The notes: generated from the sequence alone by a model not told the origin. 64,000 nt of DNA from Minisyncoccota bacterium (GCA_041658325.1 JBBAAI010000001.1:154869-218868); one strand, 5' to 3'. Positions 58,003 to 61,577 are shown, counted from the first letter of the stretch. Numbers and translations: made by a program.

Positions 58003-58551
58003 ATGAAACACTTAAACGTAAAAGAAAAAGAAATAGAGGCATTTGGAAAAATGAAAGACGCTTTTCATTTTAAAAATGTGATGGCTTCTCCAAAAATGAA
58101 GAAAGTCGTAATCAATGTCGGCACAGGAACGATGGTCAAGAAAGACAAAAATAAAAATGAAGCCGTAGCAGACAGGTTAGCAAAAATTACCGGGCAAAAA
58201 ACTGCCTTGCGAGGAGCGAAGCAATCCATTTCTTCTTTTAAAATTCGCCAAGGAGATCCTGTCGGAGTTGTCGTCACTCTTCGTGGTAAAAGAATGTTCG
58301 CCTTTTTGGAAAAATTAATTAATGTGGCGCTTCCTCGTACGAAGGACTTCCGTGGTATTAATCGTAAAGCAGTAGATAATATCGGGAACTTAACTATCGG
58401 CATCAAAGAACATACCATTTTCCCAGAAACAGCTGATGAAGATATCCGCGACGTTTTCGGTTTGTCTATCACCCTTGTTTCAACTGCAAAAAACAAAAAA
58501 GAAGGCACCGCCTTCTTCGAACTCCTAGGTGTTCCTTTTAAAAAGGAATAA
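58003..58551 (+). CDS. rplE: 50S ribosomal protein L5
   Basis: 182 aa; order; conserved L5 core. Confidence 0.95.
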   Translation: MKHLNVKEKEIEAFGKMKDAFHFKNVMASPKMKKVVINVGTGTMVKKDKNKNEAVADRLAKITGQKTALRGAKQSISSFKIRQGDPVGVVVTLRGKRMFAFLEKLINVALPRTKDFRGINRKAVDNIGNLTIGIKEHTIFPETADEDIRDVFGLSITLVSTAKNKKEGTAFFELLGVPFKKE

Positions 58552-58561
58552 AACTTTCTAT

Positions 58562-58590
58562 TGACTTTTTCTTAAAATATGCTATCCTAT
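58562..58590 (+). promoter_or_regulatory. sigma70-like promoter for DGR target gene
   Basis: ttgact-N17-tatcct; followed by a 46-nt leader hairpin gtcatagcca...tggctatgac (58626-58671). Confidence 0.45.
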
Positions 58591-58750
58591 AAAGATAGTT
58601 CTTTAAAATTACTTGCGAAGGTGGTCATAGCCAAAAGGTGCTTAATATTAGGCATTTCCTGGCTATGACTACCGTTGTGGTTGTCCTCTAGCAAAAACCT
58701 AACCGATGCGTCCTATGGGATGTGTCAAAGAAAAAGGAAGGATGTGCCAA

Positions 58751-59377
58751 ATGGCAAATGCGTCCGAAATCTCTGTCGGTTTAGTTCACGAGCTCGCCAT
58801 CACGGGCACCAAGGTCGGATTCGAGCCCAAAGACTTCGCTACTCTCGCCCACAGCGAGGAAAGGATGTCTTCCATCCTCGGCGTGCTTCATGGTACGCAC
58901 GAGATCCGTCCGATCGATTATGTGATCGATTTCAACTCTCCGGCTCGGTTGCCGTTCAACGGTGCCGTGCTCGAGGTGCACCGCGGAACGGGCATCGTCA
59001 AGCTCGAGAAGAAGGCCGACGGCCTGTATCTCGACGGAAAGAAGCTCACGCTCTTTCTCTCCAAGAAGCAGAAAAAGGGAGGCGTCATCGAGGGCAACAA
59101 GCTTCGCATCGAGCTCGAAAAGAGGGGTAAAAATGTAGGAGCGAAACTCCTTGACCACTTCGTCGAGCATCCAGAGATGTGGCCCGAGGAGTGGAAGAAG
59201 GACGACCAGGGTAATACGCTCTACGTGTTTTTCTGGGATGACATCTTCCGCAACCCGGCGTGTGGCGATCTGTATGTCCGGTGTGGGTGCTGGCGCGGAG
59301 GCGAGGTCATCTCGGGCTACGACTGGCTCGGCGATGACTGGCGCGGCCGCAGCCCGGCTGTCTCTTCCGTAAGTTAG
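58751..59377 (+). CDS. DGR target (variable) protein; C-terminal VR; GC-rich
   Basis: About 208 aa. The 3' 124 bp is homologous to the TR with mismatches only at TR adenines. Start chosen at MANASEISVG (aggaagg SD 9 nt upstream); ORF track alternative start is 58706. Confidence 0.75.
   Translation: MANASEISVGLVHELAITGTKVGFEPKDFATLAHSEERMSSILGVLHGTHEIRPIDYVIDFNSPARLPFNGAVLEVHRGTGIVKLEKKADGLYLDGKKLTLFLSKKQKKGGVIEGNKLRIELEKRGKNVGAKLLDHFVEHPEMWPEEWKKDDQGNTLYVFFWDDIFRNPACGDLYVRCGCWRGGEVISGYDWLGDDWRGRSPAVSSVS
59246..59369 (+). repeat. DGR variable repeat (VR)
   Basis: ttccgcaacccggcg...gctgtctcttccg; 104/124 identical to TR; all 20 mismatches lie opposite TR adenines. Confidence 0.85.
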
Positions 59378-59426
59378 TAATCAGAACTTTGCCTCTTGGA
59401 TCTTCTTGATCCTTGAGACTTAGTCC

Positions 59427-59473
59427 TTGGGCCCTGTGTGTTTGCTTCGGCATTCGCGCAGGGCCTTTTGTTT
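59427..59473 (+). terminator. hairpin + T-run after target gene
   Basis: gggccctg tgtgtttgcttcggcattcgcg cagggcc ttttgtttt. Confidence 0.55.
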
Positions 59474-59706
59474 TGGTAAAATAAATATGGTAGTAGGTGA
59501 ATACGCGAGCGACCACGGTTTCTCGCTACCGAATCCAGTATCCGTATGTCGAGAATATTTGCGACTAAGGTTTCAAATAGGGTGATATACGAAGACACTT
59601 CAAAAATGAAGTTACTTGGTGTAAGGTGCTATGGCATTACGATGCCGAATACGATACAACCTTGAGAGTATTCAAAAGGTGGTGGCACAGAAGGCAGCTT
59701 ACACAT

Positions 59707-59830
59707 TTCCGCAACCCGGCGAATGGCAATCTGTATGTCCGGTATGGGTACTGGAACGAAGGCAAGGTCATCTCGAACTACAACTGGCTCGACAATGACT
59801 GGAACGGCAACAACCCGGCTATCTCTTCCG
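59707..59830 (+). repeat. DGR template repeat (TR)
   Basis: Intergenic copy of VR, rich in AAC/AAT codons (nine Asn codons in VR frame). The open frame in the ORF track (59626..59859) is a consequence of VR homology. Confidence 0.85.
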
Positions 59831-59839
59831 CAACTTACT

Positions 59840-60205
59840 TCATTTCTCTCTCGTCTTAACGGCGGGAGAGTTTTGTTTTAGGAGTTGTCCGTTCCAACCC
59901 CCGAGCATTTTTCCAATTTCTTCTATTTTTTGAGAAAGAACAATATATTTTTTATCGTCAATTGATTTTGCTTCCCATAAAACCATCAAAAGTATTTTTA
60001 GAGTATCTGATTTTCGTATCGCTAACCGAACCCAAGGATGTTTTTCTTCTCGAGATAAAAAAGTAGCGATAGAAACAGCTTCAATAATTTCAATAAACAT
60101 CGTATCAATCTTTAATCCCAAAGAGTGCTTGTGTATTTTGGGCAGAATTTGATAAAAGGTAATCCAGAGAAGATAACAGCTCTTAACTTTTGCCAATAAT
60201 GGCAA
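59840..60205 (-). CDS. avd: Avd-like four-helix-bundle accessory protein (TIGR02436 / 23S rRNA-IVS protein family-like)
   Basis: About 120 aa; EAVSIATFLSRE and EEIGKMLGGW match the AVSIPSNIAEG and eeIgkML signatures of the family; lies between TR and RT on the opposite strand; apparent TTG start. Confidence 0.5.
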   Translation of the reverse strand: MPLLAKVKSCYLLWITFYQILPKIHKHSLGLKIDTMFIEIIEAVSIATFLSREEKHPWVRLAIRKSDTLKILLMVLWEAKSIDDKKYIVLSQKIEEIGKMLGGWNGQLLKQNSPAVKTREK

Positions 60206-60210
60206 AAGTT

Positions 60211-60220
60211 GGGGGGGGGG
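60211..60220. repeat. G10 homopolymeric tract in the divergent avd/RT intergenic region
   Basis: gtt gggggggggg tac, 17 nt upstream of the RT ATG. Confidence 0.9.
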
Positions 60221-60236
60221 TACTATTATAAATACT

Positions 60237-61253
60237 ATGTCCCGAATCCAATTTAGTCATACTTACGACTATATCATTTCTCTAGAAAATCTGCTTTTGG
60301 CGTGGAAAGAATTTGTTGTCGGCAAGAAAAATCGCAAAGACGTAGAAGAATTTCAAAGAAATTTGATGACTAATATAATTTCGTTACATACGGATTTAGT
60401 AAATAAAGCATACAAGCATTCCCAATATGAAGCATTTAATATTTCTGACCCAAAACCGCGCAATATTCACAAAGCGAAAGTACGGGACAGATTATTACAT
60501 CATGCGATTTATCGAGTTTTGTATCCTTTTTTTGACAGGACATTTATTACTGACTCCTATTCTTGCAGAAAAAACAAAGGAACACATAAAGCCATAAACA
60601 GATTCAGAAAATTTGCCTATCAAGCGTCAAAAAATCATACCAGAACAGTTTGGGTTTTGAAAGGGGATATTAAAAAATTCTTTGCTAATATTGATCACGA
60701 AATATTAAAAGGAATTTTGAGAAAACATATTCAAGATAAAAATGTTCTTTGGCTCTTGGGGCAGGTGATAGATAGCTTTTCTTCCCAAAAACATATTTAC
60801 GCTATCGCTGATATATGCAGTAAGGGTTTACCACTCGGCAATCTAACTTCCCAACTTTTAGTAAATATTTATATGAATGAATTTGATCAATTTGTGAAAC
60901 ATAAAATCAAAGCGAAACACTATGTTCGTTATGCGGATGATTTTGTAATTTTGTCGCAAAATAGAAAATGGTTAGAAAATACAATTGTTAGAATAAAAGA
61001 TTTTCTTGAAAATGAACTTATGCTTTCTTTACATCCTGCAAAATTATCCATAAGTACCGTTGCCTCTGGCGTGGATTTTTTGGGTTGGGTTTTATTTCCA
61101 GACCATAGGGTAGTCAGGACTATCACGAAACGGAGGATGTTTCATGGTGTAAAAAAGAAGCACGGGAGTTTTGAAACAGTGCAATCATATCTAGGCTTGT
61201 TAAGCCATGGAAATGCAAGAAAGTTAGAAAGTGAGATAAAAAATTATATTTGA
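60237..61253 (+). CDS. DGR-type reverse transcriptase
   Basis: RT motifs 1-2 (ISDPKPRNIHKAKVRDRLLHHAIY), motif 4 LGNLTSQLLVNIYM with DGR-specific SQ, motif 5 YVRYADDFVIL (YADD); 338 aa. Confidence 0.85.
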   Translation: MSRIQFSHTYDYIISLENLLLAWKEFVVGKKNRKDVEEFQRNLMTNIISLHTDLVNKAYKHSQYEAFNISDPKPRNIHKAKVRDRLLHHAIYRVLYPFFDRTFITDSYSCRKNKGTHKAINRFRKFAYQASKNHTRTVWVLKGDIKKFFANIDHEILKGILRKHIQDKNVLWLLGQVIDSFSSQKHIYAIADICSKGLPLGNLTSQLLVNIYMNEFDQFVKHKIKAKHYVRYADDFVILSQNRKWLENTIVRIKDFLENELMLSLHPAKLSISTVASGVDFLGWVLFPDHRVVRTITKRRMFHGVKKKHGSFETVQSYLGLLSHGNARKLESEIKNYI

Positions 61254-61391
61254 CTCTTTTGGGATTATTTGCTAATATCAAAACAAGGGAATAGGGCTTT
61301 GATTAATCCACTTTTCTCCTTTAATTCTTTAGTTTTAAAGGGTTAAAGAAAAAAAGTGAGATATTAACGGAGCAATCCTGATAAATTATTT

Positions 61392-61577
61392 ATGGCAAAA
61401 ACATCAGTAAAAGCTAGAGCAGCAAAAAAACCAAAATTTTCTACTCGACAGAAAAATCGATGTTTTCGCTGTGGCCGAGGAAATGGTTTTATGCGTGATT
61501 TCGGTATTTGCCGAATTTGTTTTAGAGAATTAGCAAACGAAGGAATGCTTCCGGGTGTTCGTAAATCAAGTTGGTAA
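61392..61577 (+). CDS. rpsZ: 30S ribosomal protein S14 type Z (zinc-binding)
   Basis: 61 aa; [23 protein letters not shown]. Confidence 0.95.

Follow-up and report, generated by a model that had tools for sequence, protein, structure and literature searches.

A G10/C10 tract at the avd/reverse transcriptase junction of a Candidatus Paceibacterota diversity-generating retroelement: a probable phase-variation repeat

The divergent avd/RT junction and its G10/C10 tract

The DNA analyzed here (referred to below as the window) is a 64-kb stretch from a Minisyncoccota bacterium (GCA_041658325.1, JBBAAI010000001.1:154869-218868). It contains a complete diversity-generating retroelement (DGR) located between rplE (58003–58551) and rpsN (61392–61577), in which the accessory gene avd and the reverse transcriptase (RT) gene are divergent, with a tract of ten G residues at their junction. 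The genome belongs to Ca. Paceibacterota, and the exact RT protein is on record in a metagenome-assembled genome of Candidatus Paceibacterota. The RT carries the motifs LGNLTSQ and YADD, which are marks of DGR RTs. Alignment of the template repeat (TR) with the variable repeat (VR) revealed 22 mismatches over 130 nt, of which 20 were at TR adenines and the last two were at the 3' end, which is similar to an initiation of mutagenic homing (IMH) site. The VR ends 2 nt before the stop codon of the target gene and is the same in all three assemblies of the window allele. The match of the window Avd to the Pfam family bAvd scored 37.4 bits, under the curated cut-off of 40; bAvd was matched by all 26 of the 26 Avd homologues (best 2.3e-15), and a profile search against PDB sequences matched no solved Avd structure. 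The features found, namely a DGR-type RT, adenine-specific TR/VR differences at the 3' end of the target gene and an adjacent Avd, are those of a DGR. The coordinates of all features are given in Table 1.

Positions 60206–60236 read AAGTTGGGGGGGGGGTACTATTATAAATACT, and the G run in them is exactly 10 nt long. The A of the RT ATG (60237) follows the last of these G residues by 17 nt, and five bases (60206–60210) separate the tract from the TTG at 60203–60205, which is the first start of the listed avd open reading frame (ORF). An earlier reading of the sequence alone had given the same tract and the same two distances; its value of 33% for the G+C content of the genome was not reproduced, since 36.2% was calculated for the window and 31–35% near the tract. 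G10 is the sole run of G or C longer than 6 nt in the window, where 0.005 (independent bases) to 0.015 (first-order Markov model) G runs of at least 10 nt would be expected. The window, an ENA contig (L081) and a Logan contig (L082), which represent one RT allele, all contain G10. These three assemblies probably derive from the same reads, and the two contigs match the window exactly for up to 4 kb, which leaves them uninformative on heterogeneity of the tract.

Table 1. Features of the DGR and of the avd/RT junction, in window coordinates
Feature	Position	Strand	Description
Simple-sequence repeat	60211–60220		G10 in the RT sense, C10 in the avd sense
Putative avd leader	60206–60260	-	ATG 60260–60258 (antisense to RT codon 8, CAT), 13 codons, C-tract, CAA-CTT, then avd body
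Putative -10-like hexamers	60221–60229	+	TACTAT (60221–60226) and TATTAT (60224–60229), adjoining the tract
Candidate -35 element	60199–60204	+	ATGGCA (relatives have CTGGCA or GTGGCA); spacer to TACTAT, 16 nt
Perfect 26-bp palindrome	60185–60210		AACTTTTGCCA ATAA TGGCAAAAGTT; 11-bp arms, 4-nt centre; adjoins the tract
avd body	59840–60205	-	121 codons, conserved Leu-Pro to stop; Pfam bAvd, E = 3.9e-9
DGR reverse transcriptase	60237–61253	+	338 aa; Pfam RVT_1, 1.5e-25; LGNLTSQ and YADD motifs
Template repeat (TR)	59707–59836	+	Alignment to VR
Variable repeat (VR)	59246–59375	+	3' end of target gene; alignment to TR
DGR target gene	58706–59377	+	223 aa; no Pfam match; 55% G+C
GC-rich hairpin with T-run	59430–59466	+	3' of VR; folding z = -4.9
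Terminator-like hairpin with TTTTGTTTT	59846–59870	+	Right after TR; overlaps the avd stop region

Conservation and length instability of the repeat

In order to compare homologous loci, 80 loci from species-representative genomes and 80 from metagenomes were collected, the RTs of which were 61–84% identical to that of the window. Together with the window and the two contigs of its allele, this gave 163 loci. In the metagenome scan, no relatives of the window above 74% were present among the matches listed. A divergent avd gene was located directly upstream of the RT gene in 149 of the 163 loci, and most of the other 14 were contigs ending at this place. A repeat was found at the homologous position in 146 of these 149 loci, across RT identities of 61–84% and Avd identities of 26–88%, and three loci did not have it. 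In 131–132 of the 149 loci, the repeat was a G tract of 6 to 14 nt (G6, 2 loci; G7, 8; G8, 24; G9, 22; G10, 47; G11, 23; G12, 2; G13, 2; G14, 1), G10 being the modal length (47 of 131). Another 14 loci contained other repeats, namely (GT)n in five, (CTGG)n in three, (GA)n in two, (CTGA)5 in one, two different heptamers and one interrupted G tract, which means that the site holds a repeat whatever its sequence. The unit lengths were 1, 2, 4 and 7 nt; a genuine array of 3-nt units was never seen, and the lone call of this kind was an interrupted G tract in locus L051. In 714 kb of flanking DNA of the same loci, only 10 runs of G or C of at least 7 nt were found.

Outside this sample, five IMG/VR outgroup DGRs with RTs 45–60% identical to that of the window have divergent avd and RT genes and no repeat in any of them. 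In three of these (L187, L189 and L190), the start codons of avd and RT overlap or abut, and the Avd N-termini are MNDFDIPIFKK or MIQDDLPIIK. More distant elements, among those sampled, show the co-oriented order avd-TR-RT and also do not contain the repeat. The absence of the repeat from the outgroups indicates that it is a derived, clade-wide feature, and their N-termini indicate that only a few residues normally precede the Leu/Ile-Pro motif of Avd, the repeat being an insertion into this leader.

The length of the repeat is unstable. Among groups of contigs with flanks 99.7–100% identical, in which the flanks differ by 0–1 nt per 600–1000 nt and other indels are absent, the repeat length differed in 8 of 17. 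Eleven of the groups came from the loci described above, and four of them differed in repeat length alone over 600–700 nt: L153 and L155 (G9 and G10), L112 and L114 (G10 and G8), L027 and L096 (G11 and G8) and L058 and L131 ((GT) repeats of 19 nt and 17 nt). One further group had a substitution inside the tract. The second set consisted of contigs encoding exactly the same RT protein; six clusters of this type were looked up, and four were polymorphic, with 0–1 differences per 1000 nt of the RT gene. These were P0104 (G9 in three contigs and G10 in one, with G11 in the genome locus L010), P0036 (G11 in three, G10 and G9), P0070 (G10 in three and G11) and P0010 (GTG9, G12 and G10 in two). In addition, (CTGG)n was found with 9, 10 and 11 copies in three strains with flanks 82–91% identical. 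The repeat is located at the 5' part or promoter of an ORF and differs in length between otherwise identical alleles of relatives, as is typical of contingency loci. The proposal of the sequence-only reading that the tract is a slipped-strand phase-variation switch for RT and/or avd gains strong support from this comparison of homologous loci, the check which that reading had itself named, and in which repeats with units of 2, 4 and 7 nt take the place of the tract and the outgroups have none.

The same reading had warned that assembly errors would occur here, and this proved to be the case. At least 10 of the 163 contigs begin or end at the repeat or within ~25 nt of it. Some contigs start inside the repeat with artefactual runs, namely C52 in L013 (1–52), G26 in L079 (1–26), (GT)19 in L111 (1–38) and G16 in L158 (14–29). 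Assemblies tend to break at the repeat, and surveys that look for DGRs in short contigs will miss avd or RT at this point.

Two other explanations of the tract were considered and rejected. A G-quadruplex was discarded, as other G runs nearby are absent. An origin as a product of RT activity was also discarded, since mutagenesis at adenines does not create runs of G and the sequences of the repeats vary by lineage.

Reading frames and promoter-like elements on the two strands

The start codon of avd had been placed 5 nt from the tract, at the TTG. Codon-level evidence argues that this is probably not the true start. In 88 dereplicated loci, the codon at this position (codon 1; TTG 60205–60203 in the window) was TTG in 45, TTA in 21, CTA in 8, CTC in 6, CTG in 4 and CTT in 2, and it was never ATG. 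In the same loci, codon -1 encoded Leu or Ile through 10 different codons, and codon -2 encoded mostly Arg or Lys, with both Arg codon families in use. A start-type codon between the repeat and the avd body was found in only 2 of 139 loci. This coding-type variation, together with the near-absence of start codons 3' of the tract, indicates that the translation of avd probably begins upstream of the repeat, and the TTG is probably a conserved Leu codon, not necessarily a start. The 31 bp, described earlier as a divergent avd/RT promoter region, are therefore probably not purely non-coding, as the codon evidence puts the tract within the 5' end of the avd frame.

Upstream of the repeat, an ATG-initiated frame on the avd strand that is open into the repeat was found in 145 of 146 loci, as compared with 65 of 146 for the mirror-image control on the other strand. 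In 113 of the 146 loci, there is an ATG antisense to codon 8 (His8) of the RT. Because this antisense ATG sits inside the RT gene, synonymous-site tests were carried out. The RT His8 codon was CAT in 53 of 53 loci, versus 573 CAT and 299 CAC (34% CAC) elsewhere in the gene. Codons that give a stop on the opposite strand (TTA, CTA and TCA) made up 3 of 455 in RT codons 2–8, versus 903 of 19467 over the remaining codons; among Ser codons, TCA accounted for 1 of 42 in codons 2–8 and for 275 of 1271 elsewhere. These results show selection that favours the antisense ATG and disfavours stop codons on the strand opposite to RT codons 2–8. Coding signatures were found on both sides of the repeat.

Intact avd ORFs of 120–156 codons running from an upstream ATG through the repeat were identified in 34 distinct loci. 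Their leaders include MSYSTPPPRL-, MRVILTPPPRL-, MAINLPPPRL-, MSEPHTHTHGT-, ...HTHTHTHT..., ...ASQPASQP... and ...ASQPASQPASQPGKI-. All repeat units are free of stop codons in the avd sense, and (CTGA)n and (GATTGCT)n contain stops in every RT-sense frame. In the window, the conserved antisense ATG and the tract are 37 nt apart, and a further 5 nt separate the tract from the conserved Leu-Pro of avd. These characteristics allow us to assume that avd of the window probably starts at ATG 60260 and that the C-tract encodes Pro-Pro-Pro in a short leader. The avd products of loci with identical or near-identical DNA were called as 93 aa (L081, 1104–1385), 86 aa (L082, 1104–1364) and 121 aa (L177, 301–666); the calls are inconsistent because a canonical start is not in frame. 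The annotations of the Avd N-terminus are thus unreliable in this clade, and truncated calls can hide or fragment DGRs in surveys.

With C10, the leader frame of the window is +1 out and gives a peptide of 25 aa, MTKLDSGHSIYNSTPPPTFAIIGKS, with a stop at 60183. A tract of C9 or C12 would give an Avd of 139 aa beginning with MTKLDSGHSIYNSTPPQLLPLLAKVK... (the N-terminus is also given as MTKLDSGHSIYNSTPP...). According to the switch model, the assembled genome would be in an off or, at best, leaky state. Among the 139 dereplicated loci, an in-frame ATG upstream of the repeat was present in 27% and an in-frame GTG or TTG upstream in 8%. In another 29%, including the window, only a TTG or GTG at codon 1 was available; the first start-type codon was at codons 2–8 in 13%, and there was none up to codon 8 in 22%. 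The avd body was intact in 97 of the 99 loci without an in-frame upstream ATG. Intact bodies in spite of about two thirds of the alleles being out of frame are the signature of reversible off states. The conserved antisense ATG was in frame in 17 of 106 loci, +1 out in 50 and in the remaining phase in 39, that is, it is not preferentially in frame; among the loci with G10, 30 of 35 were in phase 1. The idea that the assembled state is usually on was dropped for this reason. A natural on/off pair is apparent in L112 and L114: in L112 (G10), both RT (MGSSFLRGGGDLID...) and avd (MEESIKSPPPRKKL...) are in frame, and in L114 (G8), with flanks 100% identical to those of L112 over 700 nt, both are out of frame.

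On the RT strand, the tract is adjoined by promoter-like sequences. In the window, TATTAT ends 7 nt before the RT ATG. Of 120 dereplicated poly-G loci, 49 have a TAnnnT hexamer joined to the tract with no base in between, versus ~5 expected per offset. The modal distance from the tract to the RT ATG is 13 nt, which corresponds to 7 nt past the hexamer and suggests that the RT mRNA may be leaderless or near-leaderless. The tract would make up 10 of the 16 spacer bases between the candidate -35 element and TACTAT, and the spacer from (C/G)TGG(C/T)A to the adjoining TAnnnT was 16–19 nt long in 29 of 38 loci. The candidate -35 element agrees with the consensus at 4 of 6 positions, and the same bases are codons 1–2 of avd in antisense. 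A simple promoter scan of the 31-bp region found nothing above shuffled sequences (9 sites, with 6.6 expected), so the argument for a promoter was drawn from the comparison of motifs between loci. A few loci have the RT ATG just 4 nt from the tract. In one subclade, there is no RT ATG after the tract, and the RT frame crosses it as Gly-Gly-Gly from an upstream ATG. In another variant, observed in L184 and L185 (396–440), a T splits the tract (G5-T-G6), ATT stands in place of the usual RT ATG, and the RT ORF passes through the tract from an upstream GTG (VAKAGVGGKIITISRIQF...); this is possibly a locked allele.

Two extra G10 tracts away from the junction were found in L010 (3390–3428 and 5253–5277). 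One is located inside a near-consensus TTGCCA-N18-TATAAT-N6-ATG arrangement before a gene for a secreted protein, which in turn precedes a gene similar to a DGR target (ending in ...YVRCVR). The other is located 12 nt upstream of a second avd-like gene. A role of the G tract as a promoter spacer in these organisms is therefore plausible, and G-tract modules may control several DGR-associated genes.

The palindrome next to the tract spans codons -2 to 7 of avd, and in avd-sense RNA it would form an 11-bp hairpin immediately 3' of the C-tract. It was found only in the subclade of the window (Avd at least 79% identical), where 11 loci have arms of 9–13 bp. Locus L149 contains a palindrome of unrelated sequence with 10-bp arms at the same place; elsewhere, the distribution of arm lengths next to the tract matches that of shuffled sequence. 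The hairpin was dropped as a part of a universal mechanism, being specific to the subclade. The palindrome could be an operator, an RNA hairpin or an enhancer of slippage.

A proposed switch of DGR mutagenesis and its alternatives

Taken together, the data make it likely that the G10/C10 tract is a contingency repeat for slipped-strand phase variation, located at the overlapping 5' ends of avd and RT and gating the mutagenesis by the DGR. Replication slippage would alter the length of the repeat. On the avd strand, translation would proceed from ATG 60260 through the C-tract, read as Pro-Pro-Pro, into the four-helix Avd body, and the gain or loss of a base would shift Avd into or out of frame. 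On the RT strand, the tract would serve as the spacer that leads up to a -10-like hexamer 7–10 nt before the RT ATG, and its length would probably tune RT transcription; in some lineages, slippage would also shift the frame of RT. The Bordetella DGR RT cannot synthesize cDNA without Avd (PMC7826257), so the repeat would gate the adenine mutagenesis of the target gene, which would be active in a minority of cells and silent in all others. More tentatively, and with slightly less than even odds, it can be supposed that one hypermutable repeat co-switches Avd (through the frame) and RT (through promoter spacing or frame), giving a bistable, heritable and reversible hypermutation, and that it arose once in a large clade of Patescibacteria DGRs and has long been kept there, its sequence being exchanged and never lost. 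Under this supposition, further modules of the kind present in L010, with G-tract promoters ahead of target operons and of second avd genes, would render the whole DGR regulon phase-variable.

Several points weigh against this interpretation. The start codon in use, the promoter elements and the effects on Avd protein and on mutagenesis are predictions, as opposed to the conservation of the repeat, its length instability and the coding signatures, which the comparison shows. The long non-G repeats (37–78 nt) are not followed by a -10-like hexamer, that is, the promoter part is not universal. The antisense ATG and the -10-like hexamer overlap the coding constraint of RT or avd, which makes their conservation partly non-independent; the synonymous-site tests cover this overlap for the ATG and the stops only. 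The TTG or GTG at codon 1, present in 29% of the loci, may start avd independently of the repeat, in which case the off state would be leaky or not off. A neutral tract, too, would be in frame in about one third of the loci. Differences of 1–3 G between low-coverage Illumina assemblies can be errors, to which the di- and tetranucleotide cases are immune. In addition, the population of the window genome itself is represented only by the three G10 assemblies, probably one data set, and the loci are phylogenetically related, so that the counts overstate independence.

According to one alternative, the switch is purely transcriptional: the tract would be non-coding and would alter the -35/-10 spacing of the promoter of RT and/or of the divergent avd, with avd starting at TTG 60205. 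The position of TAnnnT after the tract in 49 of 120 loci with the ATG 7 nt further on, the clustering of spacers at 16–19 nt, the L010 tracts, which lie in promoter-like modules of two further genes that lack a divergent ORF, and TTG at codon 1 in 51% of the loci are all consistent with it. However, codon 1 is TTA, CTA, CTC, CTG or CTT in 47% and never ATG, codons -1 and -2 vary as coding sequence does, and 34 loci have full-length ORFs across the repeat. The (CTGG)n repeats of 37–45 nt and the heptamer arrays of 46–78 nt are far too long for a spacer and have no -10 element after them, and the unit lengths avoid multiples of 3, which matters for the frame and not for spacing. As the sole mechanism, a transcriptional switch is thus rather unlikely; it fits the best explanation as a second effect on the RT side and fails only as the sole one. 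Another supposition is that Avd is made constitutively at a low level by programmed recoding, either by +1/-1 ribosomal frameshifting on CCC-C or by slippage of RNA polymerase, with the help of the subclade hairpin. CCC-C is a +1-prone site, and long homopolymers permit transcriptional slippage; the +1 state is indeed the commonest one of the antisense ATG, above all with G10, and the palindrome of the window subclade directly adjoins the tract. Nevertheless, all phases occur and are mixed even within the hairpin-bearing subclade, most loci do not have the hairpin, di-, tetra- and heptanucleotide repeats cannot slip in this way, and tract length varies between otherwise identical contigs. Neither the frame offset nor the repeat type nor the hairpin is conserved, as they would be at a programmed frameshift site, and we consider recoding improbable.

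It is even harder to accept that the tract is a static element, such as a fixed poly-Pro linker, a G-rich ribosome-binding site of RT or a protein-binding site, the differences in length being noise. The prevalence of G10, the few loci with the RT ATG 4 nt after the tract (a Shine–Dalgarno-like spacing) and the error-prone nature of homopolymers in assemblies could be taken in this sense, but nearly all loci should be in frame if the element were coding and fixed, and only about one third of them are. Moreover, lengths run from 6 to 14, repeats of unrelated sequence substitute for the tract, and the copy differences of (GT)n and (CTGG)n are not homopolymer errors; a static role is accordingly very improbable. 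Finally, poly-G is a known artefact of two-colour Illumina sequencing, and some related contigs start with G26 or C52, which might suggest an assembly or sequencing artefact in the window contig. The tract is, however, located 60 kb inside a 357-kb contig, was reproduced by independent assemblers and has counterparts at this position in ~130 loci that come from many studies, so that an artefact has almost no probability left and can be regarded as already refuted by the comparative data.

The phase-variation repeat proposed here resembles known contingency loci in several respects. In Campylobacter jejuni and in hmbR and hpuA of Neisseria meningitidis, a G/C homopolymer, ~8–13 nt long there, is likewise located near the 5' end of the ORF (PMC3786947, PMC8355987). 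Slippage in these contingency genes shifts the frame, the off-phase genes are intact and the alleles differ only in tract length, as here. Unlike them, the present repeat is common to a divergent gene on the opposite strand, and its switching is predicted from sequence. The Campylobacter and Neisseria genes are surface or host-interaction genes of host-associated pathogens, whereas the gene here encodes a retroelement accessory protein of free-living or episymbiotic bacteria of the candidate phyla radiation (CPR). The (TA)n repeat in the overlapping divergent promoters of hifA and hifB of Haemophilus influenzae demonstrates that one repeat can affect both units, and the promoter tracts of porA, opc and nspA of Neisseria lie between -35 and -10. 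These repeats are non-coding, whereas the repeat here is apparently coding for avd and, in one subclade, for RT, and its -35 element is ill-defined. The nspA promoter tract and intergenic repeats of H. influenzae are described in PMC6389960 and PMC12721329, respectively. Programmed frameshift sites, such as those of prfB (+1) and dnaX (-1), share with the subclade of the window a slippery run, a downstream hairpin and a frame offset of one base, and differ from it in that frame offset and repeat type are not conserved here.

Among DGRs, that of Bordetella phage BPP-1 (avd-TR-brt) contains the same parts, namely a DGR-type RT, a bAvd-like protein and an adenine-specific TR/VR pair at the 3' end of the target. 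In contrast to it, the order here is target-TR-avd (reverse)-RT, with avd and RT head to head and their 5' ends overlapping; elements of the BPP-1 type do not have the repeat. Roux et al. 2021 (PMC8144416) described a Patescibacteria-restricted DGR clade 2, and Wu et al. 2018 (PMC5758913) a "CPR set"; both share the host phylum and, broadly, the RT family with the window, and the membership of the window in clade 2 is inferred from taxonomy only. Term searches of these two papers found no repeat at the avd/RT junction and no phase variation. In open-access text, no literature linking DGRs with homopolymers, simple repeats or phase variation was found. Repeat-mediated phase variation and DGRs are each well known; their combination, a DGR under the control of a conserved contingency repeat, appears to be new.

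To our knowledge, little is known about how cells restrain DGRs and how DGR activity is regulated. Continuous adenine mutagenesis destroys useful variants as readily as it creates them. If the proposed switch is real, a slippage-prone repeat in avd would be a simple restraint on the DGRs of a whole CPR clade, by which the mutator would be off in most cells and randomly on in a few. The switch also predicts that tract length correlates with the diversity of the variable region within populations, which is testable in existing metagenomes.

The remaining features of the element are as follows. The entire DGR (target gene, TR, avd and RT; 58552–61391) is inserted in a ribosomal protein operon, and the closest relative, L001, has the same setting, with matches to S14 and L5. 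Surveys of Patescibacteria and CPR DGRs describe some elements among ribosomal protein genes (PMC8144416, PMC5758913). A scan of 58500–61500 against Rfam at E ≤ 1 gave no known RNA family. The hairpin 3' of the VR could be the terminator of the target gene and/or a cis-acting hairpin of the DGR. The terminator-like hairpin with its T-run after the TR (59846–59880) overlaps the end of avd on the opposite strand, and because of this hairpin, the TR RNA may be a short separate transcript, unlike the avd-TR-RT RNA of the Bordetella phage. The high G+C content of the target gene extends over its full length and not over the VR alone, as compared with 36% in the window; recent transfer and repeated replacement of adenines are two possible causes.

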